Assembly (NCBI GenBank): GCA_965655095.1
Contig: OZ296649.1
Location: forward strand, 106,082,001-106,146,000
Direction of reading: 5' to 3'
From: Haplodiscus bocki
Lineage: Eukaryota
DNA: 64,000 nucleotides
In this document: piece after piece, positions 27,189 through 48,146 of the stretch
Layout: each line of letters starts with the position of its first letter
Numbering within the stretch: position 1 is the first letter of the stretch
Translations under genes and position numbers: made by a program
Notes under the pieces: model-generated
Seen by the model: only the letters and a program-made list of their open reading frames with translations
The model's database searches: none
Told to the model about the DNA's origin: nothing

Positions 27189-27830
27189 TCACGACAAATA
27201 TAAACGATGTCTACACCATTTGTTTTTGCTCTCTAACCTTTTGTTGCTCTCCGGGTATCTCAGGACTTGGTCCCCGAAACGGAAGTACTTCAGTCTTCCA
27301 TGATTTGTAACAGCAGTTTTCATCTTTTCCGGTACGAGTTTCCTATCATGATAACCAGATAAGATACACACATCTTAAGTGTCAAACATGAGAACATTAG
27401 GCAGCAATTTTTCACAGTAGTCTTCGCCCAACTCGCTGTCAGGCTTTCGACTTTCCAATTGCAACAATTCCAAGTTGAATTGTGGTTTGATACCATCACT
27501 TCTCTCAAAAATTTTATTTACGTTTTGCAGTTCCACATTCATGTTGAAAGCCTCAATGCACAGATTTTTGACGGACGTTTCAAAGAACACAAATGATCCG
27601 AAAAATTTGTATTATATAAAAAGACAGAAACAGGAGCAAGGCTCTGAAGCGTCCACCAATCATCGAACACTGCATAACGATAATAAAGCCTGTCTCGGAT
27701 GAAAAATTGGTAAGTTTGCAAATATGGAAAGATTTTTGGTATTAGATCGGAATGCCACCTAAAGTCATAAGCATGACGTATTACGACTGATGATAATTCG
27801 TTGAAAACAGGTGGGTCTGGGTCTCTAACG
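27189..27830 (-). pseudogene. F-box family copy B, 3' part of exon 3 (left of the Polinton)
   Basis: Clear paralog of 56322..57320 (CILSGYHDRKLVPEKMK..KYFRFGDQVLRYPESNK; FLYNTNFSDHLCSLK). It has a premature TAA at 27377-27375 and a 7-nt deletion near 27575. Confidence 0.9.
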
Positions 27831-27912
27831 AGAAGAAAGATACCGCAAATAAACCACCTAAAAATCATAATCAACCATTCCTACCATTTTAAAAACAGCT
27901 TAGATATGCAAA
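27831..27912 (+). repeat. Polinton left terminal inverted repeat
   Basis: AGAAGAAAGATACCGCAAATAAACCACCT...: the first 29 nt match the right TIR exactly; 9 mismatches over 82 nt by manual count. Confidence 0.95.
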
Positions 27913-27914
27913 TA

Positions 27915-28657
27915 CTAAATATACAAAAAAACAGCAACAAAAAAAAACGCTTGGTCACCTCCGATAGAACGAACTCTTTTGGAGTCAACCGGACGGTCTA
28001 GCAAATCTATAAATGTACAAAAAGTATTTATAAATTTTAGGCCTCGCTCCAAAAGGCACGAGCAGCTCCACAGACACAGTGTTTTAATGCGTGACAGCTC
28101 CATCGGAGAAAAACCCGATCTAACTATCCGGAGTTTAGGCAACTCGCGACAAAGGCGGTAAACTCTTTTAACTTCCGCCACCTTCGTCCTGCCCGAGAAC
28201 ACCGAATAAATTTTTAGTTCTTCCAATACTTCGGAGCTGCTTTTCTTGTTCAGGTTATGTTGAATCGCTTCAACAATGATGCCGCCTATATAAAAGTTTT
28301 GCTCATTCAGGCCTGCACTCTGCAGTCTCTCGATGTTCAATAACTTTTGGCACACTTCTGCCATCGCTACGGTTCTACTGAACAGCTCCTCGTCACTCTG
28401 GCGCTCTGAAGTGTGAGGAGGGAGGGGCTCATTTAATCCCGTCATTACTCTTTGACTTCGTCCAGCGAAAGTTGACTTTTCGGGCGCCGCGGAGTTGCAG
28501 AGAAAGTTGAGTTTTGAACAAGGCTTACTGGGGGCGACGTCATCTCAATGTTCGAAACGTCGAACATGCCTGCCGCCGGTGAGATTCTTACTGCATCCTC
28601 TACCGGCGCGGGAATGGCCAAACCAGTTCGGGAGGACGATGCAAGGATGGCAGACAT
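27915..28657 (-). CDS. Polinton orphan ORF(s): 176 aa (27915..28445) and Ser/Pro-rich 70 aa (28445..28657)
   Basis: From the ORF track; same strand as all viral genes. No recognisable motif. May be a single frameshifted or spliced gene (acceptor-like TTTGTTTTTTAG at ~28763). Confidence 0.45.
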
Positions 28658-28849
28658 TGAACTAAAGACCTGTCCACTTGTTCAACCTGACGTGGTGTTA
28701 GCACCAAACCAGAGAAAGATATCCTGAGCGCAATCAAGGGCGGGTGACTTTCTTCAGGCAACTAAAAAACAAAATTTTTTTAAAACATCAATTATTGAAC
28801 ATTTTTGATAAACAAAGATGCGAAAGAATAAATGAATTATTTCCTATAT

Positions 28850-29342
28850 TAAAGCTTTGAATCAAGGTAAAATGGCTGCGGCGGAGCGCAAGATGTCTTC
28901 TTCTGTGGCAAAGGCAGGAAAACTACATATTTGAATTGCTTTTTTATCAGTCAACGATTTCTTTGTCCCTTAAAAAAAATATGCAATAAAAAGACAAAAT
29001 ATGCCAGAAAACTGGCTATCAAAAGGTTGGAAGAGCGTCGATGTTGGCATGTACTGAAAAACTTTTTGGTGTGAGAGCCTGCTTCATGCTTGAACTTTTT
29101 CGTATAAGTCCCCAAAAAACTGTCAGAAGTCCATTTCAAAACTGTCGTATAGCAACACCGTCGTTAATTGACGCTATGAGCAGCCAAAGCTCGCCAACCT
29201 CGGATCACGGGTCAGTGTTAACAAGGACAAACTCGTTATGTTTTAAAAAGGGGAATGTGTCTCGTGCAAAACAGCCGCGATATTTTAACTTCAGAATAGG
29301 GTCTCGGTTGATCAAGTAAGTGAGCTGGGTCTTATCAACCAT
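28850..29342 (-). pseudogene. Adenain-like (C5) maturation cysteine protease
   Basis: Manual translation from ATG 29342: MVDKTQLTYLINRDPILKLKYRGCFARDTFP..VLVNTDP*SEVGELWLLI..LYDSF..LQPFDSQFSGIFCLFIAYFF. This fits the Polinton pattern NTD..GxHW..FDSFG..Q..S..CG.FC, but the catalytic His and Cys positions read L and S. The 3' end is approximate. Confidence 0.8.
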
Positions 29343-30708
29343 TGTAGATAATTGAATTTTTTATAACTTCTCGATTGCGGTCGATAAGCACAACAGATCT
29401 TCTCTCAACGAGTACAATAGGACGTACTGCGTCTGTGGCGGCTTTTGAAAACTGCAGTTCAAGACCCAACCGGGCACCAGTTAGTTCCGGGCGAATTGTG
29501 TTGTCTTCAATATAGTAGTCGACTGTAAGTTTGAAAACTCAACAGAAGTGGTTTTCAAAATTGCCAAGTGTTATCCCAATACCACCGTGCTCGAATCCCA
29601 AGGCTTTGAGCTACTGGTAGTAGGAGCGGACCAGGTTGTCGTTTCGATGTAGAGGCGTCGCGCTGACGAGTGATCCCTCGTGATTGAGACGAACTGTTTC
29701 CAAACCCATCTGCTGGAAGTGGAAAGGGTTTGTTTCGAAGTTTCCACTAAACCTCGTTTCGGGTACCATAAACATGATTAGGCGGCTAATCCGAACTTTG
29801 TTGAAAATACCATCCAATCGGAAGTCGGTTGAAAATATCATCCCGATAATACATAGTTACACTACTGGATATCAGAAACGACTTTGGCACTCTTTCCTGA
29901 AAATCGTAATGGGCTGCTTTTTTTGACAGCATGCGTTCAATTGTGAGATAAGTCTCATTTTTAAGCTCTAATTTGTGGACCAACAGTGACGCATTGAGAA
30001 TCTGTAGAGAAAATTCACCTTGAGAATCTTTTACCGAATTCGGGTGTATGAGGACAAATTGGTCAGCAGAGCGATACAGACGAACACGCACTTCGATTCC
30101 TGGTAACAGGAACATGTGATAGTCCGCCAGAAAACTGTCAGGAAGTCGACCGCAATAGGAGAATTTGTTGTGAGTTACTTCCCAAATTTTGACGATTTGC
30201 GAAGGCTTCACCATCTGCAATATCTCCAGGATCTGTCTCGAACTCGTATCTTTGACAGCGAAGCCAACCTTCTGTACAGGAAGCATTGTGCGATAATTCT
30301 GCTTCAACTAGAGCTTTAAATGGATACAGGTTGTTTGCAGAAGAAATTGGTGTTCCATTGAGTGAAATTTTTACATTTTATTGCGCATCAGTGAAATAAA
30401 TTGCGCATCAGATTGTTGACAAACGTAGGTTTCAGATCAGACACATCTTCCGCTTTCTCCTTGCCGACATATTTAAGATTGACGTCTAACTTCACAAAGA
30501 GGTCGACTAGGCCTATCACTGTATCGCCAATGCCAGTTTTTGCGCCCTTGAAGTCATTCTAATACCGGCCCATCAGCGCTCGTTGGTGTAAAAATTTCTT
30601 CATGATATCCTCGTTGAAAATCTACGAGAATCTCGATGTCCCAAAGAGTGATAACCCGGGGTGCATGCCGGGCAATGGTGGCTCAGAATAAACAAATGAA
30701 TCAGGCAT
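29335..30708 (-). pseudogene. Major capsid protein (double jelly-roll), frameshifted
   Basis: GRLPDSFLADYHMFLLPGIEVRVRLYRS..ILNASLLVHKLEL..AAHYDFQERVPKSFLI..DDIFNRLP (29786..30307); FMVPETRFSGNFETNPFHFQQMGLETVRLNHEG (29611..29841); C-terminus LIDRNREVIK. Confidence 0.88.
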
Positions 30709-30936
30709 TACTCTAGAGTTGTTTCAAAATGTAGGGTCACATAGAAAAAATAAAATTCAACTGTGGAAGTTTCTCAAATAGGGATCAACCGCGATCAACT
30801 ATGGAACTGAAGAAAATTTGCCGACTTCTTTTTTCCTTTGTTGGTCCCTGATTGCGTGATTTGCCAACCGATTTACGGAACTAAACTTTTTCACTTGGTT
30901 AAGACGGTGCCTTGTTTTTTTTGTTGCTATTCTTCT

Positions 30937-31299
30937 TTAACATTGTTCGCGTTCTCTGAGAGGTCTTTGTTGTGTTTGGTCGACGTAACGGGACACGTCT
31001 TGTATTCTTCCACCGCGTCCCCCGCCAACTTGTTTTCGGATTGTCTTTTTCACAGCGTTTCGCATTGCTGCTTTCTGCTTAGTGCTACTATCCAAAATAT
31101 TGATCACTTCTGGAGCAGCCTGTTGTAAGAACGATTTTGCGACAGGAATACCATACCTTTTAACCATTGGTATTACGAATCCCTTCAAGCCAGCTTTGAT
31201 GGCTGCTCCGAAGCCACTTCTATATTGATGATATGGAGATCCTCGAAAGTAATTTACACTGCTCGGACCGCTGTTCTGATTTTGATTGACACGGGGCAT
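30937..31299 (-). CDS. Small basic Gly/Arg-rich core-like virion protein
   Basis: FRGSPYHQYRSGFGAAIKAGLKGFVIPMVKRYG..KQVGGGRGGR resembles the FxG..YQRGxG small proteins found between the capsid genes of Polintons. The function is inferred. Confidence 0.65.
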   Translation of the reverse strand: MPRVNQNQNSGPSSVNYFRGSPYHQYRSGFGAAIKAGLKGFVIPMVKRYGIPVAKSFLQQAAPEVINILDSSTKQKAAMRNAVKKTIRKQVGGGRGGRIQDVSRYVDQTQQRPLREREQC

Positions 31300-31455
31300 A
31301 AAATCATCTGAAAGTAAAAAAAACAAATGAAATTGTTCAACGGTCGTCCAATAGGAATCAAGAGAAGCTTCATTGAAGAAAATTGAACCAATATGTCAAA
31401 TTTGATCACAAAGGTACTTTCAACAAAATTAATAAAATCTGTACAGCTGGGATAA

Positions 31456-32266
31456 TTAAATTTTCTTCGGAAAAAGCAACGTCACAGAAGTACGACCAAC
31501 ACAGACAAAGGGAACAAAATCATTAGTATCAGTCCTCAGTTCAATCAACAAATCAATCAAAATCGTTTTCGAAACCTTCTTGAAAATAGGATTGGGGAAA
31601 GTGATCAATGAGCACGCGCCAAAACCTAAAGCACCACCAAGTTTTTCTCCTACTTCCTTGGGCGGCCTGTGTTGTGGGTTGAAGAGTGGAAGGCTGTCCA
31701 ACATTGGAGCTCGGCTGTTCCCAACGAACTGCTGCTCAAAGAAGTCTCCGTAAACGTACACATGGTGCCAGTGGTGAATATCAACAAGAAAAGCCCCAGG
31801 AGAATCGTGGATTGACGGCGGATTTTTCCATGGCGAAGGCTCATGTTGGCAGCCGAGAGCGTGAAAGAAATCAGGTGACACGTTGGCAAACCTAGTTTTG
31901 GAACGGTTGTTTAGTTCCAGTTTGCCTTGTTCATCCACTTTCTTTCAGTTTTTCCTTCATCCAAGCACCCCTCTTCCGGTGATTGGCTCCAATCATTTCT
32001 TCCAGAAGGTCGTCCACGCTATGGTAAATGCCTTCTCCGATTTCACATTCTTTCACCCAAGACTTCTTTCCATGATAATAAAAATAAAAAAAGACTCGAA
32101 TATTGTTTATTTGTCTCGGGTAGGTCATTTCGGTAACACCAACTTCCCAGCTTCCTTCGAGCTCGAATGGACATGACAGGATTGTTCTGAAGGAAGCTAG
32201 AGTATTTGATTTGTAAACATTAAGGGATGCGTTCGAGGACAAATTGATGGTGAATTGGTCGTGCAT
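31456..32266 (-). pseudogene. Minor capsid (penton-like) protein, frameshifted at ~31935
   Basis: N-terminus FTINLSSNASLNVYKSNTLASFRTILSCPFELEGSWEVGVTEMTYP; C-terminus HVYVYGDFFEQQFVGNSRAPML..IELRTDTNDFVPF..GRTSVTLLF. Confidence 0.88.
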
Positions 32267-32356
32267 GATGTAATTGCTCACTCTCTCGATAACAGCGTTT
32301 GAGAAAGTCATAAAAATGATAAGAATAAGTTATCAAAAAGTTATGCTGAATTGAAT

Positions 32357-33388
32357 TTAACTTGTAGCAAACGATATAGTTTGATGGCGCGACTGTCCAC
32401 GGTCCTGCAAGTATTTGAAAGGAGTCAGCTTGGGAGCGTAAAATTTGCCCAGAAGGGGTTCATCTTTAGAGTCGAAGAATTTGTATTTCACTGGACCTTT
32501 TAGTTTTGGTATACAAACTCGTGATACTTTTGCTCGTGAAAAGAAATCATTTGTATAATGCTGCTTGTAGCCTTTTTGAAATGACAATTCTTTGAAAGCA
32601 ATGCGAACTCGATCGCCAACTTTAACAACTTGATTTTGAACCAGGTAAAGAACGTCGTCTCTGAAGGGAGACTAAATGAGGAACATGTTTTGCGTTGACG
32701 CCATCAGCAGCCATTCCAATCGCCCGATTTCGCCGCTTGTTCACAAGGGAAACAATTTTTTGAAGTTGAGGAATACACCTGAAGGTTTGGTATTCCTCAA
32801 AATACTTGTATAGTGAAGTCTTCAAGGTCCTTATGTACCTTTCAGCCATGCAGCTTTTGGTTTCACTGTATGTATGGTAAACTTCGATCTCATTTTCTGT
32901 GCAGAGTTTTTCGAACTCAGCTTTGAACTCCTTACTTTTATCAACCCACAACATTATGGGGAACTGAACATTTTCAAAGTTAACCTTTGATTCGAAAGCC
33001 AACTTTGCAACAAGGGCGGTTTTTGATTTCAGCGGCTGAACTCCAATTTCTGGGCAGAGACTGTCTACTGCAAGAAGAAGATACTTGACACCGTCGTTGA
33101 TATTTGCCATTTTTTCCATATAAGCGATAACCAAGGACCAAATGTGGTTTATGCCTAGCGAAATCACTGGTAAACGTGGAAAATTCTTTGTGCTGGCTTG
33201 AACTTGGTGTAAGTTTTCGAGGTTTCTAAATATGCCAAAAATTTCGTTCGTGGCAATTCACTAGCTTTAGTCAAGTTGGAGATACTACCAAAAGCGCTTG
33301 GATGATTAGGTAATGTTAAAAGGCCATGTAGTTTGCGATATTCGGATTCTGTTGAGACCCTATTGTCAGCATCACTGGGACGCTTCAT
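32357..33388 (-). pseudogene. Retroviral-like (rve) integrase, three frameshifted pieces
   Basis: HPSAFGSISNL..TYTKFKP; NDGVKYLLLAVD..PLKSKT..LWVDKSKEF..KSCMAERYIRTLK; FQKGY..DEPLLGKFY. The first catalytic Asp region (normally WQxDLxD) reads WSLVIAY. Confidence 0.93.
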
Positions 33389-33472
33389 ATTGTCTGTCTC
33401 AGTCTTAATGAGTACGAATGTTTCTGTTCAAAATGTAGTTCAAGCAGTTTTTATTAACAATCAACTCAGCGT

Positions 33473-33757
33473 TTATGGCCGAAATGGGGCTCGTCGGCGG
33501 AAAAGTATGTCGAGAACAAAAAAGTAGTTTGCGGGTTTTTTCTTCTCATACAACTGGAGGTCACGAAGAAAGGTCAAAATTTTGATATCTCCAAAGAGCA
33601 AATTGTCAGCTCTTTCTGTCGGAACTATGGAAGTTTCTGGAATCCTTCTCCCACGTGAATCTTTTTTCGAAATTCTATAACTTTTGTTACAAGCATTGAA
33701 GCTCACTTCTTTTTCCATGAGTAACCTCAACAATCTTTCAATGCGTTCTTTCCGCAA
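33473..33757 (-). CDS. Polinton unknown ORF fragment between ATPase and integrase
   Basis: 94-aa ORF co-oriented with the viral genes; no family recognised. Confidence 0.35.
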   Translation of the reverse strand: MRKERIERLLRLLMEKEVSFNACNKSYRISKKDSRGRRIPETSIVPTERADNLLFGDIKILTFLRDLQLYEKKKPANYFFVLDILFRRRAPFRP

Positions 33758-34470
33758 CGATGAGTCTTTTTCATTGGTCTTAGGCGTTTCGATGGAATTT
33801 TTGTTGCTAATTCCTGTATACTTTGTGACATCTTCCAGCCGAGCTGTTTCAAATTTGTCTCGTGTCGTCTGATTCTTTTCGGCAGTAGGGTTGGCAAGGT
33901 CGTCTTCTGCAGCCCACTGGCCGAATTGGCAACGAGTCCTGATGACGAGGTTGAAGTTTGTCTATTGATTGATCCTTAGTAGTAATGTGAGGGGATACTT
34001 GATCGGGCAGATTACTCGATGAAACTAGAGCGGGACAGACGTGTGACGTTAACCTAAAAGAAAACTATAGGGAACAAGCACAAACTCATCCAGCAAAGTT
34101 GATGAAATATGATTGGCGTGTGTCCAGACAGTTTTGCAGAGTCTTTCCGATGATAAGTTTAGAACCAACCCGCAAAATTTGCTCTAATGTCAGCAGAGAT
34201 TTTACTAAGCGTTTATAGGTTGCAGCCGTTTAGAATAAAGTAAAAAATGGTATATTTGGTGGTTATTTCCTCAGTTTGCCATATTGATCATAATTTCTGT
34301 TTGCGTGATCTTCGGACGCAATTTCGCGAGCGTACTGAAACAACACTTTTTTTGGTTACAAAGAAAACCGTCGGCAACTGTAACTCATCAGTAGAAGTTC
34401 GACGACCATGCGGTAAAGATTGAGTTTTTGATATCTTATTCAAAAATTTGCCCGCTTTTCTCAGAAGCGC

Positions 34471-35254
34471 TTATTGGCTTGTCAAGCTATAATTGTTCCT
34501 ACCTCGATGGTTATTGTCAAAGTTACAAATTCTGGTACAAAATCTCAAAGAATCGTGGCATGTAGTGGTGAGATCAATCAACAAATGGCCAAAAGGAACG
34601 GACGTTGCCGGCTGGTAGGCTAATTCGAGGAAAGCAGAGTCCGCAATTTGCAGCTCTGAGCCAGGAAAGTTCAATTGTCGGCCTATTCTCGGCGATTTAC
34701 TACATGAGTAATGCTTTTGCCTACAGTAACGCATTACTTTCCTTGTTGGTACAAATTTTCTTTGATAAAAATAACACTCACGCCATTATGCCGGCCAGCT
34801 GTCGCCAAATTAGCAAAGCTGGCGCTTTCGAAAATCTCAGCACGAAAATCATTGAATATTGCCAAGACTTTGTCATTGCCCGAGACAAATTGAAAACCGC
34901 TGTCTTTCATTCGATGATTCAAAAGGTTTTCGATGAGCCAATCAATAGAAGATTGCTGGCTTGGGAAATTCAAAGGTGAACTAAATTTGGGCAAGGGGTT
35001 AGACTTCCAGGAAATTCCCACGGGAAACTTTGAGATCACTGCAATCCCCAATAAAAATTCGCAGAAAACCTTTTGATGAAGCGATCATACACAGGCTGCC
35101 AAAGGCGGTAAAAGTAAAGAATTTTTTCAAAACCAGGCTGAAAATTGCCGTTAATTTGTGGAAACATCTTCAAAATAACATGTGTTTTGCCTGATTCGGA
35201 CGAACCACATACGCATATAAAGACGCGAGTCTCAGTGCAAATACCTTTATTCAT
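34471..35254 (-). pseudogene. A32-like (FtsK/HerA) DNA-packaging ATPase, frameshifted
   Basis: Walker A VCGSSESGKT; Walker B-like LAIFND; GRHNGVSVIFIKENLYQQGK; KSPR..GRQL..AYQPATSVPFGHLLIDL. Confidence 0.92.
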
Positions 35255-35414
35255 TTTGTTAAACAGAAGTTTTTCTGAAAGCGCTGGCGTTAGGCAGTAA
35301 ATAGGCGATGGAAATGGAAAAAATCATGGTGTAAGCTGTACGTTCTTCGCAGCTTAAGGAGGAAACAATCAGAATCCTCAGCTTACAGAATACAACGGAA
35401 ACGAATACAAGAAT

Positions 35415-38400
35415 TCATTGTGAGCAAAAAATGAGAAACACACGGCCAACGTTTCGATTGAAAAAACTCAAAACGTCTTTGTTGTCTTCCTGGTTGTCAA
35501 CACATTGGTTATCGTGGGTCACCTTCGGTATTCCAGTCGCCAGGGTGACCTCCTGGCAGTCTGCGCATTCAGGGTAATCTTCTCCATAGGTTTCCGGCAA
35601 TGACGTATGTGGTTGTACTTTTGCGTAATCTCAGTTTTCTCGGTTTGGCTGCACACCTGCGTACCCTCATGTCCCGTGTATGATTGTTTCTGATTGCCTT
35701 TTCTGGAGATCCAAGGCGATAGAGGGAAATTTTTGCTCGATTTGCTCACACTTCCGGGAGCAGACTAGGTGTAGGAATTAAAAAGGCCAAAAAGGAGCTC
35801 AAAATGCTCATGTCACAAAATGTTTCTTGACACGTATCGTTGGATTCGTTTTTACAATTAGGGCTGTTCTGTTGAACCAGGCTCAATTTGAGTAAGGAGA
35901 AAGCGTCCAGAATGAAGATAAGTAGTAATTGTGTCACGAATAAAATCTGAGCAAGCGGTGGTGCTCTAATATTTCTTCTCACGCTCCTAACTTGGGAGGA
36001 ATTTTCAATAAAAAGACCCTGAGAGGGCTGATTTTGTCTCCCAGGGTTTTCTTCTTCTGATAATGATTTTCTCAGACGGCAGGTTTCCTGAGGATGGTCT
36101 GATTTGTCGTATTTTCCTAGTTTGTCAGCATGACTGGAATTGTCTGATGCATGCATCTGAAAAGTACATCTAAGCTACGTTAAAATACTTCCATGTTCTC
36201 TTGCAAGATCATGCCTGTCGAGAAAAAAAAGGCAGCGGTTTATGCAAAAAATTATTTTTTCAAAGGCACGCAATAAACTACCACAAAAGCGAGACTGTAT
36301 CAAAAGAAAACAATTACATATACTGAGAAAATTGTCGCAGCTCCATATCAGAAAGCTTAGGTTGCCATGTTCTACGGTAAATTGCCGGCTGTCAGTGGTG
36401 TCCCCTGTTTTTTTTTAAAAAAAATCAACCATAAATGGTTGTTTGTTATTGTAAACAGCTCTTTCCTCACGCTGTTGGGTTGCCCTCAATGTGCGCTTCA
36501 CTGCTAATGACCTCATTCTCCTCATCATAGCCGCTCATGTTTTCGTTTGCAGTGTAATCATTATCAGCACTCGCACTTGGGTCTTCCCAGTTGTCGAGAT
36601 TGGACGTGAGCGTTAATGACGAGCTGTTTGGGACATCTGATGACGTTGAAGATGGGCCTCCAGCAAAAGTGAACAGGTTGTCGGAAGCAGAAGCTTGACT
36701 GGTTCAATTCATTTGTGCTGCTAGGCTGACACTGCTGCTCACAATCGGTTGTCGCAATTGATGATATGTGCTAGCGTCTTGAGTGTTCAACTGATAATGG
36801 CTCGAGTTTGCTGCCACACCATCACCACAACCACTTTTCCATTCTCCTCGGGCACAGCAAGAGCCTCCACACGAAATTCGAGGGATATTCATGTAATAAC
36901 TAGATGTTCGAAGAAAAATCGACGAATGGTCAAACTGGGTCTGATGGTAATTGGACGCATCGTCTCTTACATAGGCAGCTGCTGAAATCATGTTGGTAGC
37001 AGCAACTGAATTCACGCTGTCTGCGGGGTGTTTTGATAAACGAAGTTAGACAGCATCACCTGGGAAGGATGATTGTAGTAAGATAAATTGCGCTGGTTTC
37101 GACCACCTTCTCCGCCCTGTTAATTATTTTGGTCGCGAAACGATACTATATTCAGAGCTAAAGGCTTGATTTGTACTAGACAGCAATATTCGTCCCAGCT
37201 CATATTCAAGTAATTGGGGCGTCTCGTGGCCTGTAAAGGTGCGCCTACAGACAGACCAATTCTTGTGTTTTCTTACCAGAAAAACTATCCCATAAGACGA
37301 CTGTTAAGGTGTTTGGTTCTTAGGTGCCGGAACTGCTTCTGGGAATTCAAAGTTTATGCGAAACGTGTCTGACAAAGGGAGGTAGGCAGTCATTTTGTTT
37401 GAGATTTGACTCGGCTGTTTTTGTCGATGTTCACTTTATTGTTGAGACAAAGTAACTGAAAGAGTGGAAATTTGTCACTGTCAATATGAAAAACAAAAAG
37501 AGACCCGTCATATGCCCCAGCCGAAAATAATTTGGGAGAACAGGTAAGCTAATCACGTAATTACAACCTGGACCTTTCCTACGAGTCCGGTACAAGTAAC
37601 CATAAGCATCATGAAAAACACGGCATGTAATTTGAAAAGTGGTGATACCGACGAAAAGACGGAATGTATTCTCAATGTAATACCCGGCCCTATTTTTCCA
37701 ACCCAAGGTGTAGTGTGAGATAACTCGCCACACTTCAAAATCATGGCAACAGCACATTCTTCACAGAACCCTGCACAAGAACATATGTTTGTTTCGACAT
37801 GCTCAAGAATAGTAAATGATTGAACTGTAAATAACTCGGTATAGCGTAACCTAATCGTGAAGGGATTTTCTCTGAGATCATTGCTTCATCAACTTTGCTT
37901 GAATCGATGTCTGTTATCATAAGTTGAATTAGTAAGTCAAAATTATCTTCCTGACTATGTTTGTAAAACTTATGAGGTACTTGAAAGATGATTCAATTTT
38001 TGCGATTGACAGCTACAACATATTTCTGATGAGAAAAAGAACAAAATGAATGCGCAAATAAAAGTGCTCAGAAAAGAAAATAAGGAGTATTAGTCCTAAA
38101 AAACCATTACATACACAGGCACACTAACACGATTCGGATGAACATATATGCGACGCGTCCTTGAATTATCAAGTAATTTTCTTCTTCAAGGATAACTTCA
38201 CAAACTAAATCTTGTGGCCCCACACACATTGAAAATCCCACACAACCTTTGCTCTGAGTTTCGGAGAACGTTTAGGCTACAACTCTCTGTTTACACAATC
38301 CGCACTTCGTCTCTTTCTTTCCTCCATCATTTTTGTTACGAAAGTGTTACTTTTCACCAATGTGAAACCATCGTTCATGCAGCACGGACAGCATACGGTT

Positions 38401-39240
38401 CTTTGTTGAAGAGAAAAATTTCCCAGCTCTATTCATCTTCAAGTTTGGGCAGGAAAAATCTTGTATTAGGCGAATCATCACCTCTAGCCGCCATTTTACT
38501 GTGTTTTCTTCTGTTGGGAAAACCTCATTAGTACCACTTGTGTCTTCTCGGAACTTACGTATACCATTGAATACTTCCTGGAAGCCAAGTTTTTCGGCTC
38601 CAATTGTATTTTCAGTCTTCAGCGGCGCTCTTGTTGAAGAGAGGTGTGCATTACTCCGTCCAGCTCTTGCCTCTTAGTTGTCACCATCTTCCTCCTCATT
38701 TGTCATTTGGGACTTTTTGAACGGAGCGGTATCCATTTTTTTCAGCTTTCGTAACTGAGGTGCCCGGTTTTGAATCAACATCAAGAGCAGCAACTGTTGA
38801 TGGGGCGTTGACTATAACACGAATGTGGTTATCGGTTGCAAAGCAGTTCCGAGGCTAAGGTAGAATATAGCACTTCCCTGCAGGGAAGCGACCGGTTTAA
38901 TTGTTCGGTGAGACCGCTAATACACAACGGACGTCGTCATTTTTGTATCCACAGAGATTATAACATTGGAAAAGATGGGCACCGATTACACAATCAACGT
39001 TGTTTTCAGCAAAAATGGCTTGCAGTTTTTCCCGAACGTACACGCATTGTTCAACAGCGTTTCCTCCGAAAATATGCTTGGGATAAAACACGAAATGTGC
39101 ATAAAGGGAAAATGATTTGCGTCGAAACTCCATAATACTCTCTCAAATTCAAAAAACGGCAATTACTGGATCCTAACAGTAGTTCATCATGGCACCCAAG
39201 GTTTGTTTTTTTTGAAAAAAAATCTTGTTTCAATTTATTC
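35415..39240 (-). other. Polinton accessory region with fragmented orphan ORFs
   Basis: Minus-strand ORF fragments (35415..35749, 35746..36156, 36704..37015, 37431..37757, 38897..39133) without recognisable motifs. Confidence 0.35.
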
Positions 39241-39289
39241 TATAGTAAATGCAGTGAACGTTAGACAGACAAAAAAACAGCCAGAGGAG

Positions 39290-42200
39290 CTACTTAAAGA
39301 AACCGAACGGTGAGGAGCTGCCTGAGTTGACATCAAAAACTCGTTTGTTGTTGGTCACATGAGCTTTTTTCTGGCAATATCTCGTTTTTACTTCACCAGT
39401 TTTCACACAACAACCCAAACTCGTGAAGGGGCTGTGCTGTTCATGAGTTTCGCCGAAAATTAGTTATTCAAAAGTTTCTGGGTTGAAAGTCTTCTCTGTT
39501 GCTCTATTCACCGTCACTCCTTTCACTTTGAAGACGTGACATTCCAGTCTAGATTTTACATTGTGACCTGAGAGACACTAAAATTTCGGTCCCGCAATCC
39601 AAAATTAGTCAAAAAGTACATCATTTCGGAGTTCATCGGTCATCTCACCGAGACGGCTACCAATCGGAAGAGCCGGGAGTTCGCACTTCTCTTTCTGGTG
39701 AACATACATAATACTGTCAGTATCGCAGTAGAGTACAAATTTCGAATTTTTCACTAGTTGCATATTGTTGAGCAGGATGATCCTGGCATGTGATGTCGTG
39801 AAAGCAGCCAGTAGGAAATTGGTTTTTCTTGGCGCATCGGCAGCATCGTCTATGAGCTGATACTGTAAAAGCATGAGGTCATCGCCAACTAGAGCTGCAT
39901 CTGTAACACGTTTCGTTCTCGACATAAAGAAGTCCACAACTTCACAATAGTTGTTGACATATCTAGTTTACGGCATGTTATCTCGCATTCCGAGATAGCC
40001 CCAAAAGCTGTTGACTAAGATTGATTTTTGCAATAAACCGCAGCCCTTCAATTCTTGAAACTTTGAGAGGGTCTAGAATGATCCCCTCTTTCTTCTGGAG
40101 ATCTTTCAAATAAGCAAGTCTGTGGCTATATAAATTTTCGAGTTCAGTCTCCTTGTCTTGTGGGCAGCTGCAAATTGACTGTGGCGAACCGGAGGCCTCC
40201 ATTTTGATTTTCAAGAACTTGTTTTTGTAGTTTCCGAACAGAAACGCTGATCTTTTGCTCCTTCACCAGTTCCAAGTCTCTGCGACATTGACGATACGAT
40301 ATCCATTCTCCAAGGCAAACTTTATTTCTGGAGTTGTGAAAGTACCCAAAAAGCATCTATCCTCCACCTGGGAGTGTATACATTTGTTTGATGTCATCTG
40401 TATACTACGATTAACCACTGTGCTGCTTCTTTCTTCGACGTATCGACGACACAATGGCAAGAAGAGCTTGGATTGAAATTTGAATGGGAGTACAGGTAAA
40501 CGTTAATCCGGGGGTGTTAACACTTCACTTTTATTTAGACCAAACACCTTTTTTTAACAGTTGGCATTCAACAAACGTAAAATGAACTTCAGAGAAATGA
40601 CGCTGAAAACATCAGTTCACCATGCAGTTTTGTTTGTCTAGCATGAGGAAAGGAAAGCGGTACTTTGAGCAAAAGTTCTTCTCGGTTCGAGAATCTAAAA
40701 TCAATTGGACCTATTCCATTGTTGCCAGGAGAAGACAAACTTGCTTGAAAAAGCTTTGCTGTGGCACTCTTGTCCGATTTATTGCTGTACTGATTTTGCG
40801 ACTATGTAGCAACTAGTATCAAGTCAGGATGGCCCAGAAGATAGAGACCGCGCGTTCACGTAAGGATACAAAGAACAAAAATCCACATAATTAAATTCTT
40901 GAGACTCCACTTTTCGGGACCAGTGCATTGCAAAGTTTTCCGTTCGCCCACCAACAAACGCTTCCCGCGGTTGGAAAGGACTGTAGCGTTTAACATCCAG
41001 AGCATTGTTCTGATTTTCTGCAACATTTTTGGCTCGATACAAATCGTTTTCTTCCAAGTAAACCACCACATGGAAATTGGTATCCGTGAACGTTGTGGTC
41101 GCTTCTGCATCGTTTCTAGACTTCGCTTTCAGGCCTTCTACTAAGGTACCAGGCAAGTAGTTTTCCATAAAGTCACGCTGGCACCCGTTTGCTTGTGACT
41201 CAATATTACTCAACTCAAGAAGTCGGTTAAATTAGCACTCCCAGTTGTAAAAAACGTCACCAACAGTAAACTTCAAGTTGCCAGCTGCAGTGAAAACGTT
41301 TTGATCGGTGATCTGCATTGTGAATCAATTCAGTCTATCCAACACAGTAGTTGCACATAAATCAGGCACTGTGATACCACTGCGTTTTTTATTGATCTCG
41401 CTACGGTCAGGATAACAAGATGGATAGCCGTGAAAGTAACATCCAAAAAACACCAAAACCTTAGAGTGGTAAACTTTGGGGGGTAACTTCGACTGCGAGC
41501 TGGAAATAGAAGAGTTTGCATAGCATGTTTTATAGATTAGAAGTCCGTAAACTTTGAATGAGCCCAGCGTTTGTTCTCTTCCTCTTCCTTCTTTCAGACT
41601 GCCCCCGGATATGTAGAGACGTATCTCGATTTCGTCCCCCCCATTTTTCGCTAATCCTATCGCGAGCAGTTTGCTCAATCCAGAAAAGCCACACAGCTGC
41701 GGGAAAAGAAGTTAACTCTACGCCGGTGTATCCATTATGAGGCAGTATAGCAAAGGAATCTTTCGGCATAAACAACTGCCGGTATATAAAATTGCGAGCT
41801 GATGCAGGAGTGCAGGCCACTTCAAAGGGATCAATGCCGATGCAAACTGATTGAATTAAAGGACGACATTCCATAAAACCTTCCTTCAACAGCTTTACAT
41901 CGGATATACAATAGCTAATAAGCTCTGCCTCGAAGATATAGGTCAACACGTTTTGTTTGTAAAATTTACATTGCTCTGTGTGCCAACCCAGAAATTCTAT
42001 ACTGTTCTGCCGTCCTTTCATTGAATTGATTGCAAAAAGGCAAGCTGGGGGAAACTGCCTTTCTTTGAATGCGAATTCTTGAGACTCTCTGCTTGACCAA
42101 TGTTTACTTGGAAGTCGAACGAAAGGAAACGGATTGGCTCCCGATTGCGTTACAAGAGTACAATCGGTAGAAATTATTTGCCTTTTACTGCAATGCGGTC

Positions 42201-43460
42201 CTTTGTCAAAGCTCCGGAAGTTGTGTATTTCAGTGCCAGCAGTTGGAGAAAGCGCCTCCTTTGATGTTAGAAAATGTGGAAAATATCCGTTTGTTGTTTC
42301 TTTGAGATTAAAGGTACTGGTGAACTTCGATATTGAGATTGGGATGAAAAGGTACGAGTCGATGAATCTTTAGTTTCCAACTCGCATTGACGCTACTTTA
42401 TTTCCCCGCAAAAAAAATGTTGATATGTACTTCTGTTGTCTGTATAATTACTCTAAAATTGGTGTAAAAAGTCAAAACCGCTTCCAAAGTGAGCAAAAAA
42501 CAATTCGGTTTTTCGTACACGCTCTGTGCCGGAATACATATAACCACAAAACTTGCTTATACAATGGTAGCCTAAATAAATTTTGTTCCTCACCTACCAA
42601 ATGATTCGGTAGCCAGTAGGATCGGCTTATGCAGGCCTTCATTACCACAACTTTGGTCTGTCTCGATAACAAAAACCCAAATAATGTCATCTGACAGTTT
42701 CTGGCCAGCTGAAGTTCAACTCCTCACAATGTTCTTTCCCATATCTTCGGGCCCATCTTTGTCGATTTGTGGTCGTTTTGCGGCTTTCAGATCCATCCTT
42801 CCCTGGTATGCTGGTTCGCACCCCATTAATCCATCGCCAAGGTTTTGGCTATGGACATCGTGAAAGGCTCGACTGTTCACTGAGGCCGCTTTGTTGTGAT
42901 GGATGGGTTTTTGTATGAAGCATTGGTGCTCTGCCAAGTTGTGGGAGTTTCCCTTGCGATCTGCAATGTGATAATACACCGCATAGACAGTGCATCGCTT
43001 CTTTGAGCAAATATGGTTTGAAAGAGCTCTCTTGGCAACCACGTTGTTACAAGAAGGAAACAGTGTATGAAGATGACATATACCAGAGCTCACATGGCAA
43101 GTATACCAAGGCACATATACCTAGTTTCTATCAGCATCTATCGCCTTGAAATTGCAATGGTTTGCCCTGGAAGCTGCTTTGAGAGGAGCTTAGTGTTGTA
43201 ATATTCATGGGTGAAAGATTAATGAATCCAGTTCGATTGAGGTAACCAGGTTGTCTGCAAAACACACAGCCACTCGCAGCACAGTGTTCAACAGTGGAGA
43301 AAGCCTCGTGGCAACTGTAACAGAAGTGACGAGCATCAGACAGACCTTTAATTGATGTTACCACATCCACATGGCAATTTTTGGCGCCATAAAGTCGATG
43401 TGTTGTACTGCGTTTGGGTTGTAACATTTCGGAAAGGCCGCATAAAGTTGCTGTCATAAG
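39290..43460 (-). pseudogene. polB: Protein-primed family B DNA polymerase (pPolB), many frameshifts
   Basis: N-terminal HVDVVTSIKGL..FCYSC. Exonuclease: FIDSYLFIPISISKF..GYFPHF and ELISYCISDV. VSR-like insert FFGCYFHG..CYP..NWEC. Polymerase: PREAFVGGRT, YVDFCSLYPYVN, LRFIAK.., LAAFTTSHAR, VLYCDTDSIMY, LGEMTDEL. Ends approximate. Confidence 0.95.
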
Positions 43461-43830
43461 CCGGGATACTCTATTCCCCCTCTTCCTCCTCCACATGTAA
43501 CCCCATTATTGAGTGCAATTTCTTTTGCTCTTGCAAATTCTTGAGGATAGTGGACATTTATCCCCGAAGCGACAGTGGCGGACTTGTCACCAAACTCCAG
43601 AAGCGTTGCAAAACAAGTCAATTCTTCCCGTTTGAAGAAAAATGGCTCTGACGGTACCAATGACCGGTTTCAGCGTCCGGTTTGAAGAGCCGTAGATCAA
43701 TATAAGTTGAGGAATTCCCGTAAGTCTTTACACCCGCTCGAACCCAACGATTGTGAGTCTTTTTAATAACCGACCACTTATCATGGCTCGTTTCGTTAGC
43801 ATTGGGCGTTATTCTCCATGCGGATGTCAA
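43454..43830 (-). pseudogene. PC4/Sub1-like ssDNA-binding protein, frameshifted at ~43655
   Basis: NRWVRAGVKTYGNSSTYIDLRLFKPDAETGHW/VPSEPFFFKREELTCF resembles the PC4 core R.V.V..F.G..YIDIR.......G...P...ISL..E.W. Confidence 0.55.
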
Positions 43831-44227
43831 CGATCGTTTACCATCGTAGCCGGGAACACTTTATGTCACGCTTCTGTTGGGACTTTTCGCGAATTACACT
43901 ATTCAACCAGCCCATGTTCATGTTACACAGTAACAGACACACTTTTCTGAAACGAAGGAAACATTTTACAAAATTAATTCAAGCAACAAATTTTTTTGCT
44001 TCCTTCATAAACATATATTGCTTTAAGCAGACCAATGTGTGGAGTAAAAAAACTTTGTTTTTTCCTTGACAACAATCAGCAAACATAATCAGAGGTTCTG
44101 TTGGGTTGCAAGGAAAATCAGACTTTATAGGGCAACTGGATGCTTTTTTTACATGTCATATATTAAAAAAATGTTAAAGTAAATCGGTTGACTTTTCACA
44201 AAAATTCTGTCGGCTCCCTCTTGAGCT

Positions 44228-45305
44228 TCAAGGCGTCTGCGAGAGACTTTCGCGTGGTCGAACGAGGATCAGACTCCCTGTCATTCTCTGCCTCTTGGTC
44301 ACAAGGTGAGAAGAAGAATTGTCCATTAGTTTCTTTGTGAATTGGTCGGGCCACTGCGATCCGAAAATATCTTCTGCTCGATCATAGTACATGTTCAGCA
44401 AATACTGTGGACAAAGATCGTTCAATTTCCTTGGACGGTTGAAGACCTCGACAAGCATCAAAGCCTAGGTTGACCAAGCGAAATCGACACGAAATTGGTA
44501 AGGCTCGTTACGTTTGATGAAAACTTTCTTCGGTAACACGTTGTTGTTCAGTCCAAAACGCAGGCAGATGGCGTCAAAGTTCACAAACAAAAGGAGTTCC
44601 AGAAATTCATCATCATTGCTGCTACTTAGCCATGTATTTTCGATGCTGTCCATATAGTCATCGGCAGTGAAAATTAGGGCTTCATCTTCTAGCATGACAT
44701 TCTCACTCACGTCCCAAAAATAACGGAGGGGGTTCATGCCTGACACATTGGGTGTCAAACCTTGCAGACCAAAAGAAGACTTTGATTCGCCCATTGCAAT
44801 GGAGGGAAAGTCAGAAGGTTTCACGGCGATTCTGAAAGCTCCAACTCCTCGTTTCTGATCTGCGGTTGTTATAATCGAGCTTGACACGCAAGTCGAGTCG
44901 CATATTTCATCATACTCGTCCTCCTCAGATTTTTCATCCGACGTGGGAAGAAAATGTTGACGAAACGCGTCGTAGTCCATTCCGACAACTTTTTGGAACG
45001 ATCTTTCGAAGTAGTTGTCCATGGCTTCATAAGATCGCCATTGATGCGTTTCGGTGGCTACATTGGGGCCGACAAAAATTTTGATAGAGTTTCTCCTTTC
45101 CTGCCGGCAAGAGTTCCTCTTGGTGTATACTTGCGTCCTTGCCTTCGATAACACAACCAAGAAACTCATTGGTTCCACTCTCTCTGTAAGGTATTACTAT
45201 GACACGGTGGCGACGCGAGATGAGCCCCCGCTTGTAGTGGTCGAAAAGGAATTGATCTGCGTCTCGTTGCTTGCGGAATTGGACAATCTGGAAATAAAAA
45301 TTCAT
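44228..45305 (-). CDS. Polinton orphan protein (237-aa core 44465..45178; probably continuous with 45027..45305 and 44228..44461)
   Basis: Longest uninterrupted ORF in the element. 44228..44461 follows in the same frame after a single TAG. Confidence 0.5.
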
Positions 45306-45346
45306 TGCAATCTACTCTCCACGTGCCACTAGTTTAGATGGAGCCC

Positions 45347-45690
45347 CAACCACACAAAAATGGCCGTTGCTTCGCGAAAAAGCAGTCAAAAAGCACATTT
45401 TGCCACGCTAATCAAGTCTGCAAAAAAGTTCGCGCAGCGCGAACGTTTTTCATCCTAGCCATTCTGCACAATACCCGTCTTTCACGGCGTCACAACCACT
45501 CAAAAATGGCCGTTGCCTGGCCAAAAACAGTCAAAAAGCACATTTTGCAAGGTTAATTTAGGCTGCGAAAAAGTTCGCGCGACGCGAACTTTGTTCATCC
45601 TAGCCATTTTGCATGTTACACGTCTTTTACGGCGTCCCAACCAGAAAAAAATGGTCATTGGTTGCTTGGCCAAAAACAGTCAAAAAACTA
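45347..45690. repeat. ~145-bp tandem repeat (about 2.3 units) with palindromic cores
   Basis: The unit CAACCA..AAAAATGGCCGTTGC..CAGTCAAAA(A)GCACATTTTGC repeats. Hairpins: GTTCGCGC-A-GCGCGAAC (45428-45444) and AAAGTTCGCG-CGA-CGCGAACTTT (45570-45592). Confidence 0.85.
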
Positions 45691-46515
45691 ATTTTTACTT
45701 GCTAGAACGTCATTACTTTTTCGGTATAGATATTTTAAAAAGTTTACTCTTTTACAAACACGGAAGCGCTCTCACACCAAAACCACATTTTTTTCAACTT
45801 TTTTACAAAAAACGATTCAAGCAGTGAAACATACCACGGCCATTGATGCCACATTGAGATCCTCCTAGTAAAAATCTTTGTAAGGCGGAGGAGGGAAAAA
45901 AATAGGCGTTGCTAACAGAGGCGAGGATGAGGAAGCGTCCACAATTCTATAACAAAAAATAATTGTCAGTTTTTTAGGTAAATAAACCGAAAATTTGAAC
46001 TTTGAGTGAAACACGGAACCTACATCTCGAGGTTGTCTTGGGCGCTTGGGGTTGGTTTGTTGCAGTTGTTGATGTTTGTTGTTGATTGCTGACATGCTGT
46101 AACAAAAAAATTACTAAGACTTATGTTCATTTTGTTAATCTACTTTGAATTTTTTCAAAACTACTCAAATTTTTGAGATCAGATTGTTTTATTTTGTCGC
46201 TGTAGCGTTGTAATGTGAGCGGCAGCAAGTTGTTTAGACACAATGGATAGTGAAAAGTATGGCGGTGATGAAATTTTGCTGCTATTCAATTGGCCTTGAG
46301 AGCGCTGAAATTTAGAGCTAAGCAGTTTGCAAATGGAGCTCGCGGTGAAGAAAATCGTGTAAGCACGGATCAATTCGCGCTGACAAAAAATACACGCGCG
46401 AATAACTACGCGCTGGTGAAATTTTCACGGCGCGAGTAATTGCTAATAGCGGTTGTTGAAAAAAAGGCTGCTTAAAAACACAGCACACAATGGGAGTGTA
46501 ATGAAATGAATGTTG

Positions 46516-46597
46516 TTTGTATATATAGGCTGTTTTTAAATTGGTGGGAATTGTTGAATGTGATTTTCAGGTGGTTTATTTGCGGTATCTTTCTTCT
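46516..46597 (-). repeat. Polinton right terminal inverted repeat
   Basis: ...AGGTGGTTTATTTGCGGTATCTTTCTTCT followed by the TSD CTAACG. Confidence 0.95.
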
Positions 46598-46603
46598 CTA
46601 ACG

Positions 46604-46978
46604 AACACAGTCATACACTTTACGAGCTCCATCTGTCAAACGGGTACAACTGAGACTTACACGGTGAGGTAGTCCAGATAATATCTTCAAATCATCATCT
46701 CCAAGTTTGTCCACTGATGAATGTGTTACATTTGGATAACTCAAAAGAGTTTAAAATGTAAACATTAATATACCAGTAATTCAATTTTTCAACAGGAAAA
46801 CACATCCTTTCCGTGGAATCGAAACGCCGCTTCAACTCAGAGCAGTGAAAACCCTTGAATAAAGAACTTTCTTCATAATCTGTGCAATAATCTGCCGGAG
46901 TAAACGTTATTGAACGTAGTTTGGGTAGCTTGGAAACAAAATCTTGCGCATCCTTCCAAGATTCAAGACTACCAGCAA
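46604..46978 (-). pseudogene. F-box family copy B, 5' part of exon 3 (right of the Polinton)
   Basis: Acceptor TTTGTTTCAG at 46980-46979, phase 1. Reads DAQDFVSKLPKLRSI..VTHSSVDKLGDDDLKILSGLP versus copy A DVEDFLRKLPKLQSI..VTHVSFNKLDPDDLHILSGLP. Confidence 0.85.
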
Positions 46979-47746
46979 CTGAAACAAACTCATTTTATGC
47001 ATGAACAACAAAAAGCTGGCAAACCAAAGGCTCTTCAAAGTATGCTTCCATTGAGTTCGCAATAATATACGAAAACCAATAGTTGGCACAAGCATAACAA
47101 ACCGCCAAAGAAGGAACGCCTCAAGTCAGCGCCGCCCTTGAGGTTCATAATGTTTTTAAGATGGGGGTCTTCGACATTTAGAATTTTTGCAAAATTGAAG
47201 TTGCAATAGTTTCGGTATACTCAAAGTAATTGTAATAAAAAATATCACGTATGAGCCAAAAAGATCGCCAGGAGGCCCCTTCACTTATTTTATAATGCGG
47301 TTCCTATTAATAGGCAGGGTTATATTACGAGGGAGGGTCCGAGTGAAAGTTACAGACACTTGAGGAGAGGGGGTTTCTAATAAGGAGGAGGTCCGAAAAC
47401 CTTCAGATTCGTCAGCTTTATTAGTCGCAAATTTGGAATTTGATTGTGATTCCACCAACATTTGTATCCGTTTAGGTCGGCAAAGCGCAGCCTTCGTGAG
47501 TCGCAGATTAAGCAAAGAGAGCAATTATGTAGACACGGCAAAACGAATTTTGCATATTAAGCAAGTTCAAAAATCGATACACCGGGGGATTAAAACTGGA
47601 GAGAAGATGGTTGCCAATTTTGAGGCCCAGACAGCACGATGGGGGTGACACTCGTTTTAGGAACCGCGGAATATTCTGTCTAAACTGCTATTTTTTCGTT
47701 TGCGTGGAATTGAATGTACGTTAGTTAATCTGAAAGCTGTTTTTAC

Positions 47747-48146
47747 CACTAAGTTCAGAGAAATCGATAATCAATTCCTCCAATTTGAACCATACCAAAA
47801 TTTTCAGAATTGCAGGGTCAATTTGACTTTTGGCCGCTGGATGGCTCTTCGTTATGACAAGTTTTAACTTTTTAATTCTCCAATTAACTTGTTCTAAAAA
47901 TTTTGAATACACTTCCATCTTATGCTCCTGTACTTCATCTTCACGTTCTGATATATCCAAAAACATAATTCCACACTCCAAATGGCCAGGAACGTGGCTT
48001 TGAAAAACGAAATTTCTCAAGTATGTGCAATTTTGCGCTAAATTCATCAAGTTTTTGTTGCGTCTATTGCTGGGTTCATTGCAGCAGAGATAGAAGATGA
48101 TCTTCTCTAGAACGCTTTCTGGCAAATCCAATAAATTTTGCGCACT
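47747..48146 (-). pseudogene. F-box family copy B, exon 2 (F-box)
   Basis: LLDLPESVLEKIIFYL..LMNLAQNCTYLRNFV F-box motif. Acceptor TTTCAG at 48148-48147; donor G|GTAAA at 47746, same phase as copy A. Confidence 0.85.

Follow-up and report, generated by a model that had tools for sequence, protein, structure and literature searches.

Polintons/Mavericks span 13-25 kb (PMC10748475) and are characterised by terminal inverted repeats (TIRs), a 6-bp target site duplication (TSD) and AG...CT ends (PMC4028283, PMC8097293, PMC10748475). They carry protein-primed DNA polymerase B (pPolB), RVE integrase, ATPase, penton and major capsid protein (MCP) genes, with the order INT-mCP-PW-MCP-PRO, and in the Xenopus tropicalis element every gene lies on one strand. 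Decay is the norm for Mavericks, with 96% of vertebrate loci affected (PMC8097293). The adintovirus Alpha-PolB class (PMC8502044) has a PF03175-type PolB, an integrase and a virion module, and in nematode Mavericks the accessory regions are lineage-specific and may harbour genes that resemble those of hosts (bioRxiv 10.1101/2022.07.12.499685). How does the locus described here, found in a 64-kb window (the whole stretch of DNA analysed), compare with these systems? It shares all of the above traits, its host being probably an animal as in the adintoviruses, and it is very probably a germline-integrated Polinton/Maverick (polintovirus) that has since decayed.

The element occupies positions 27831-46597, has AG...CT ends, and at 18,767 bp falls within the published size range. 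It is flanked by two identical, unstranded copies of the TSD CTAACG (27825..27830 and 46598..46603), a 6-bp match with a chance probability of ~3e-4. The 82-bp TIRs, at 27831..27912 (plus strand) and 46516..46597 (minus strand), pair with 9 mismatches and zero gaps, the outermost 29 bp being identical; a TIR one base longer (83 nt) was dropped, as the extension would destroy the TSD. The terminal 25-mer of the TIR occurs exactly twice in the 64-kb window, and two matches were obtained in 0/100 shuffles. The TSD, TIRs and termini thus bear out the exact boundaries, perfect duplication and short, ~82-bp repeats with 9 differences described in an earlier note, whose span of 27825..46603 counts both TSDs. 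On the other hand, the TIRs are short compared with published Polintons/Mavericks (82 bp against 46-1,447 and 100-1,500), and the end motif, (AGA)2//(TCT)2, is absent from the three vertebrate motifs of PMC8097293. Published Polinton TIR filters demand at least 100 bp and at most 2% mismatch (PMC11131425), and the short, imperfect TIRs of this element would slip past them.

All HSPs to stored relatives were on the minus strand and between the TIRs, with none outside. A Pfam scan of the window's own minus-strand pieces recognised only pPolB (2/104 pieces); the other gene assignments pass through relatives rather than through window pieces directly. In pPolB (39302..43485, minus strand), PF03175 scored 26.7 bits on one window piece (cut-off 25.8) and 98.9 bits on relative P0001. 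The RVE integrase (32357..33388, minus strand) covers 322/342 aa of P0032, with two frameshifts and a degenerate first position in its catalytic triad; the Pfam rve model matches relatives P0032, P0038 and P0114 above its cut-off, and a PDB comparison returned a weak integrase match (E=0.08). The A32/FtsK-type packaging ATPase (34330..35254, minus strand), which carries two frameshifts and one stop, is identified by five relatives above the Pox_A32 cut-off. Between the ATPase and the integrase, in the PM/PZ position, lies a broken gene (33402..34058, minus strand) that is 65-86% identical to pieces of P0033, P0035 and P0046 and has no meaningful Pfam family.

The capsid genes were assigned with graded strength. 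For the penton (mCP) position (31456..32270, minus strand), between the integrase and the core-like open reading frame (ORF), the confident model of relative P0043, which is 45% identical to the window gene, matches the mavirus and adenovirus pentons as well as Drosophila-associated adintovirus 2 (E=1.6e-10); through these relatives, the predicted single-jelly-roll penton of the element is confirmed. The gene at 29335..30708 (minus strand) covers 442/445 aa of the unbroken relative P0019 at a mean identity of 77%. Its Atlas comparison scored 0.98 (226/256 features) to a cluster with PF21738 in 30% of its members, with recognition under the threshold; Pfam Capsid_N on its relatives likewise stayed under the cut-off (E=0.004), and a PDB sequence search with its profile gave no match. 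These similarities point with moderate strength to a putative double-jelly-roll MCP. The model built from 13 close relatives was poor (pLDDT 37.6), and a viral fold search with it listed several MCPs but at a TM of about 0.2, which was not counted. Directly after the MCP, at 28970..29342 (ends approximate, minus strand), a segment broken by a frameshift and stops retains, in a three-frame reading, a degenerate form of what we take to be the adenain-type catalytic motif; it had no profile match, and a PDB search of its pieces gave nothing useful. By motif and position, it is probably an adenain/Ulp1-type maturation protease. An open, basic ORF of 120 aa (30937..31299, minus strand; 21 K+R vs 6 D+E) occupies the PW/core-protein position, with the penton on one side and the MCP on the other as PMC8097293 describes, and had no profile match.

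The resulting order, INT-mCP-(PW)-MCP-PRO, agrees with the published Maverick module (PMC8097293). The earlier note had claimed the whole morphogenetic module together with pPolB and integrase. Database relatives confirm pPolB, integrase, ATPase and penton, with pPolB and RVE integrase above Pfam cut-offs, whereas the MCP holds at moderate strength, with Capsid_N under its cut-off, and the protease and core-like genes are named by motif and position, with no profile match. A phage collection contained no match to the MCP and only the distant polymerases of Bacillus phages Sole/Sato (23%, 4 records); two pattern scans of prokaryotic genome contigs gave 51 and 54 matches, none confirmed as relatives.

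The element is heavily decayed. All seven of the genes with relatives (7/7) are broken, in line with the claim that nearly every gene is, and about 3,026 aligned codons contain 19 stops, against 21 expected at 5.5% divergence. This count fits neutral decay of roughly 5% per base and, being independent of the TIR mismatches, upholds the description of the element as an old fossil. TIR divergence itself is an uncertain clock for its age because the inner 53 bp contain all nine mismatches (9/9), a clustering with P=0.015 under random placement. Could the breaks instead be errors of long-read assembly in an element that is really intact? Frameshifts are frequent, and many relatives are fragmentary too. 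However, host exons of 352, 163 and 148 codons are open in the same window, the substitution stops are at the neutral expectation, and 76/462 otherwise invariant columns of the window pPolB are changed, vs 0.6-13% in six relatives. Furthermore, the TIR differences are gapless substitutions, and a deletion of about 0.8 kb cannot be a base-calling error. We regard assembly error as highly improbable. Unaided, this copy can neither replicate nor integrate, nor can it form particles; virion capability would be a trait that the family inherits from its class.

The deletion concerns pPolB, which also has about 8 frame switches and 12 stops. Residues 1-273 of P0001 pPolB have no counterpart anywhere in the 64-kb window, where no terminal protein (TP)-like piece was found at E<=50. 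The element is in this respect not "complete", as it had been called: about 273 N-terminal pPolB residues are absent, which sets it apart from described Polintons/Mavericks, and the OTU domain of adintoviruses is largely missing in this copy. We infer that the lost part comprised the TP and most of the vOTU, the domain names being taken from the published domain order (PMC11161782). The N-terminus is present in 4/4 full-length relatives; its loss is a lesion of this copy and not a difference of its family. The truncation may nevertheless predate the insertion, because the sister pPolB, P0003, likewise starts at residue 282. Accordingly, the element might have been non-autonomous already when it inserted, lacking TP and vOTU and being copied in trans with the help of an intact relative, or its TP might have been encoded separately, as in a Stylophora polinton with its own TP gene (PMC11161782). 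P0003 begins where the window match begins, as such a history would predict, but it is an ORF-called fragment, for which any break close by could produce the same start; with the intact N-termini of the full-length relatives and no TP-like piece in the window, we consider this history rather unlikely.

How did this copy arise? Full-length relatives are represented by P0001, P0004, P0019 and P0028 (32 cluster members), and the family is multi-copy and apparently without a name; the one named match is a protein of Oculina patagonica at 39%. The earlier note had called for an MCP phylogeny and for a search for intact relatives. In the MCP tree, the window copy falls within an unresolved 5-member clade (96/94) and has the longest end branch, and in the pPolB tree P0003 is its sister (100/99). 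Unbroken MCP and pPolB ORFs do exist in related subfamilies (ENA records); the diverged subfamilies, with MCPs 60-80% identical, have kept full-length MCP ORFs. By analogy with its class, the ancestor would have made a linear copy of itself, with pPolB starting from protein primers at the TIR ends. The RVE integrase would then have put the copy into a gene belonging to an F-box/LRR-like cluster of the host, within its last coding exon, leaving the 6-bp duplication and the split gene that are both seen here. The star-like MCP clade shows that the copy belongs to a set of several related insertions produced by an expansion, possibly a single burst. It then decayed under no selection, and its reading frames and the N-terminal part of pPolB were lost.

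It is also conceivable, if doubtful, that the family moved purely as an intracellular transposon, its capsid module being a passenger or otherwise used and forming no virion. Amplification within the genome would agree with the star-like clade, whose copies are decayed to a similar degree, and PMC8097293 notes that Maverick particles have not been observed. Yet MCP, penton and ATPase genes occur in conserved order together with those for the probable protease and core protein, and the full-length MCP ORFs of the diverged subfamilies suggest selection on the capsid. The unbroken capsid and polymerase ORFs of this family are a place to look for evidence of animal polintovirus particles.

The remaining genes are accessory. 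A stop-free frame of 209 codons (27915..28544, minus strand) lies in a region, 27913-28900, whose minus-strand open-frame excess was matched by 3/300 simulations; it had no match in Pfam, PHROGs or NCBIfam. Between pPolB and ATPase, a decayed block of 4.0 kb (35258..39301, minus strand), which distinguishes the element from described Polintons/Mavericks, holds minus-strand stop-free stretches of at least 75 aa that total 984 aa, vs a mean of 315, and 0/300 simulations reach 984. It lies outside the coverage of every stored relative and had no meaningful profile matches. An SGNH-hydrolase-like reading of about 38720-39200 was a by-eye guess from a motif, and no search supports it. The small broken gene adjoining the truncated pPolB (43490..43860, minus strand) looks PC4-like by eye, judged from a motif that we presume to be diagnostic; profile searches gave no relevant match, and the reading was set aside. 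Kelch matches that turned up were discarded as sums of trivial repeats. Unlike adintoviruses, the element's decayed pieces had no profile match for PLA2X, GasderminX, Cupiennin or Oncoid, and unlike nematode Mavericks, it showed no fusogen, WASP protease or KRMA kinase in profile scans; its candidate cargo is of another kind.

Apart from this cargo, which may recruit the protein-degradation machinery of the host, the element is an ordinary fossil. The cargo is a candidate E3 adaptor gene at 44199..45311 (minus strand), which encodes 371 aa in the unbroken relative P0184 and here has two frameshifts and one stop. The 371-aa product had no Pfam or PDB match; its Atlas similarity to SPRY/Neuralized clusters (0.93, 146 shared features, recognition 1980) is weak, the feature count and the recognition value both being under the benchmarks. 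NEURL2 has the architecture of an Elongin-BC adaptor. Like it and SPSB1-4, the gene shows a weak, central SPRY/Neuralized-like signal, and towards its C-terminus a BC-box-like motif precedes a cullin box, the two being spaced as published for such adaptors. Using the published consensus, the strict BC box, (S,T,P)LxxxC/S/AxxxPhi, was found in 0/14 sequences of this gene, position 1 being K or N. The rest of the BC box, with a Cul2 box 8-23 residues downstream, was present in 5/14 sequences, and in 5/6 of those that reach through the region. The background of this pattern was 1,355/20,000 shuffles anywhere, 262/20,000 in the last 100 aa, and 15/181 other stored proteins; an earlier pattern (8/20,000 shuffles) was discarded, having been written after the sequence was seen. 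Compared with the SPSB substrate adaptors of Elongin-BC (PMC3355856), however, position 1 departs from the strict BC box, the cullin box belongs to the Cul2 rather than the Cul5 type, the N-terminal region is extra, and Pfam and PDB offer no counterpart.

Tentatively, the product could be a cullin-RING substrate adaptor of SPSB/NEURL2 design that the family captured and that serves to destroy restriction factors of the host. Adenovirus E4orf6 and lentiviral Vif destroy such factors. If this were true, an animal Maverick would carry a counter-defence gene of viral type, and an Elongin-BC adaptor in it would be a sign that elements of this kind oppose the defences of their hosts like true viruses.

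The element sits in what was the last exon of an F-box/LRR-like host gene and divides that exon in two, its flanks aligning with successive stretches of a single exon in a paralogue. Neither this interrupted gene nor the candidate E3 adaptor had been recognised in the earlier note. The 3' part (27192..27824, minus strand) matches residues 137-352 of that exon (563/698 nt identical) and has frameshifting deletions of its own. The 5' part (46604..48167, minus strand) matches residues 92-125 at 46738-46637 and includes an F-box-like exon (47721-48167) that is 48% identical to 59853-60341. The uninterrupted paralogue (56322..60341, minus strand), with an open exon of 352 codons, serves as a stand-in for the empty site; LRR_14 (E=7.5e-5) and F-box (E=0.036) were both under cut-off in it. 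Joined with the captured-adaptor reading of 44199..45311, it is a possible but speculative corollary that the insertion also disabled a host E3 adaptor gene of F-box/LRR type. The locus offers a clean case of Polinton insertion in which a paralogue can be identified to represent the empty site. Over the 64-kb window, Rfam and ARAGORN reported 0 features, and an unstranded tandem repeat with a 145-bp unit (2.3 copies, 83% matches) lies at 45347..45686.

The element is a Polinton/Maverick by its TIRs, target duplication, size, pPolB, integrase and virion module, and it is real and precisely bounded, yet incomplete and dead. CTAACG lies on both sides (27825–27830 and 46598–46603), a 6-bp flanking match with a chance probability of ~3e-4, and places the element proper at 27831–46597 (18,767 bp). 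The TIRs are ungapped 82-bp inverted repeats with nine mismatches, identical over the outer 29 bp; two copies of the terminal 25-mer are present in the window, whereas 0 of 100 shuffles contained two. Both the perfect 6-bp duplication and the short TIRs (~82 bp, nine differences) of the earlier note were borne out. AG...CT ends are retained as (AGA)2...(TCT)2, which differs from the three end motifs given for vertebrate Mavericks in PMC8097293. GC content is 0.418 within the element and lower on either side (0.386 and 0.375). A 145-bp tandem repeat (45347–45686, 2.3 copies) sits between the first gene and the right TIR and may serve as an enhancer array for a promoter or origin.

Because Pfam recognised only 2 of the 104 minus-strand ORF pieces, both as DNA_pol_B_2, the genes were mapped via relatives. 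The pPolB piece matched 18 proteins among 616 candidates at up to 73% identity, including full-length proteins of 1,539–1,644 aa and, at 39%, an Oculina patagonica protein. The MCP piece matched 13 of 380 candidates (59–85% identity), six of them 445–452 aa long. Relatives with unbroken ORFs, of the kind the earlier note proposed looking for, exist for both genes. The integrase, ATPase, penton and one accessory gene were sought with one frame of 31934–35323, stops being replaced by X; among the best 150 of 412 matches, 30 were scanned, of which three passed the rve cut-off and five that of Pox_A32.

The MCP identification is less strongly supported than those of pPolB, integrase, ATPase and penton. 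Atlas placed it at 0.98 with a cluster carrying PF21738 in 30% of its members (recognition 2164, below the 2300 benchmark), Capsid_N scored 17.2 bits in Pfam against a cut-off of 24, the PDB gave no match, and structure modelling failed. The protease and core-like gene, tentatively assigned from motifs, composition and position, were recovered by no search. The earlier note had read the virion-type gene set as whole; pPolB (by profile on the window's own pieces), integrase (by rve in relatives), ATPase and penton stand, the MCP less firmly, and the protease and core-like gene are unsupported by the searches. HSPs to the relatives are all minus-strand matches that fall within the TIRs, and together they span 10,198 of 18,767 bp. 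The gene order, INT-penton-basic ORF-MCP-protease, is that of the Maverick module as presented in PMC8097293.

The boundaries claimed for the element hold, whereas its completeness does not, as the pPolB N-terminus has no counterpart. The match to the full-length relative P0001 begins only at about residue 274, and residues 1–273 gave chance-level matches only across the whole window (E<=50) with each of four full-length queries, all of which share this region. By the domain order TP-vOTU-EXO-PALM given in PMC11161782, this copy would lack the whole terminal protein together with the greater part of the vOTU protease. This is the sole tested Polinton feature absent here, and a lesion of this copy. 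P0003, sister to the window pPolB, likewise starts late, at residue 282, which may be a chance effect of how ORFs were called or a truncation common to both.

The claim that nearly every gene is broken applies to all seven genes with relatives. Approximate counts from HSP chains gave eight frame switches and 12 stops in pPolB, three and four in the MCP, two and none in the integrase, two and one in the ATPase, one and none in the penton, two and one in the 371-aa accessory gene, and one and one in the pre-integrase gene (33402–34058, minus strand). Assembly error could in principle produce such breaks, but the host exons nearby are open, which counts against it. Across ~3,026 codons there are 19 stops, where a neutral divergence of 5.5%, the TIR value if the repeats were identical at insertion, predicts 21; this clock is weakened because all nine mismatches fall within the inner 53 bp (P=0.015). 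Of the 462 pPolB columns that do not vary among the four full-length relatives, the window copy departs at 76 (0.6–13.1% in six others). The corresponding MCP figure, 63 of 263 (9–15% in relatives), is probably too high owing to misaligned stretches around frameshifts. Most copies of such elements are fossils (96% in vertebrates; PMC8097293), and in this respect the element is ordinary.

In the pPolB tree (13 of 18 relatives kept), P0003 pairs with the window copy (100/99). In the single-frame MCP tree (8 of 13 kept, five left out for short overlap), the window copy groups with four others in a clade (96/94) whose internal order is not resolved, and its terminal branch, at 0.14, is the longest. 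Full-length MCPs diverge by 12–40% and one cluster has 32 members, so several subfamilies exist. Longest-contig sizes of 56,208, 310,319, 126,221, 54,916 and 242,729 recur among MCP, pPolB and accessory-gene matches, which suggests multi-gene copies sharing contigs. Together with the Atlas taxa, the matches point to a probable animal host.

The 352-codon exon at 56322–57380, in the uninterrupted paralogue, matches the right flank with residues 92–125 and the left flank with residues 137–352. Of the two neighbouring paralogues, one therefore had its last exon split by the insertion. F-box-like exons lie at 47721–48167 and 59850–60341, with Pfam F-box and LRR_14 both below cut-off. The interrupted gene has frameshifting deletions of its own, and the insertion may have killed it or hit a pseudogene. 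Its exon halves differ in identity to the paralogue at 56240–57378 (81% for 27193–27828, 66% for 46636–47002), which may point to gene conversion, or to selection acting unevenly across the F-box/LRR-like genes. Immediately upstream of the F-box-like exon is a 33-bp tandem repeat (48770–48870, ~3 copies).

The accessory gene at 44199–45311 (minus strand) matched, besides the window's own protein, 12 relatives at 72–80% identity out of 73 candidates; one, P0184, is unbroken at 371 aa. No meaningful match came from Pfam, PDB, PHROGs or NCBIfam. For its middle part, Atlas gave a resemblance of 0.93 to SPRY/Neuralized clusters, a weak signal (146 shared features, recognition 1980). The C-terminus fits the BC-box plus Cul2-box consensus of PMC4878042 and PMC3355856, save at position 1; this fit is independent of the Atlas signal, whose query stopped short of the C-terminus. 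The strict BC-box pattern occurred in 0 of 14 accessory-gene sequences and the relaxed BC-box/Cul2-box pattern in five of the six extending through the region, By way of background, 20,000 shuffles produced it 262 times within the final 100 aa and 1,355 times at any position, and it was present in 15 of 181 other proteins. An E3 adaptor is a tentative reading, and one we rate as less likely than not. Accessory cargo is already known from nematode Mavericks (bioRxiv 2022.07.12.499685) and E3 ligases from Polinton-like viruses (PMC7805220). In the literature searched, no Polinton was described as carrying a SPRY/NHR-BC-box gene, although supplementary gene tables could list one; 'SPRY' and 'Neuralized' were absent from the Polinton papers among the matches listed, and searches pairing Polinton with 'SOCS box', or with PC4 and single-stranded DNA-binding, returned nothing related. 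Elsewhere in the element, 35258–39301 has a strong minus-strand excess of open frame, equalled in 0 of 300 simulations, in which no gene was identified.

Other repeats and possible mobile-element traces lie outside the element. A 503-bp unit (1840–2342) has AGTAGT...ACTACT ends of classic Maverick type; its AT-rich core is enclosed by inverted repeats of ~100 bp that are 88% identical, but the 6-mers flanking the unit do not match. It closes an AT-rich segment (1–2342, GC 0.276) with short repeats at 62–118 and an HTH-like minus-strand ORF (69–413; HTH_24 in Pfam, E=7e-4, below cut-off); this segment could represent one end of another Polinton-like element, unrelated to the first. The tandem duplication at 14409–17481 (~1.5 kb, 66% identity), holding an Integrase_H2C2 piece above cut-off (14471–14764) and an RT-like piece judged by eye, is a decayed LTR retroelement. 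Degenerate ~175-bp tandem repeats occupy 20804–22130, a MULE transposase fragment lies at 62191–62463 (Pfam E=8e-5, below cut-off), and 58627–59010 looks by eye like a transposase remnant. An ATG-started minus-strand ORF at 63026–63487 encodes 153 strongly acidic aa.
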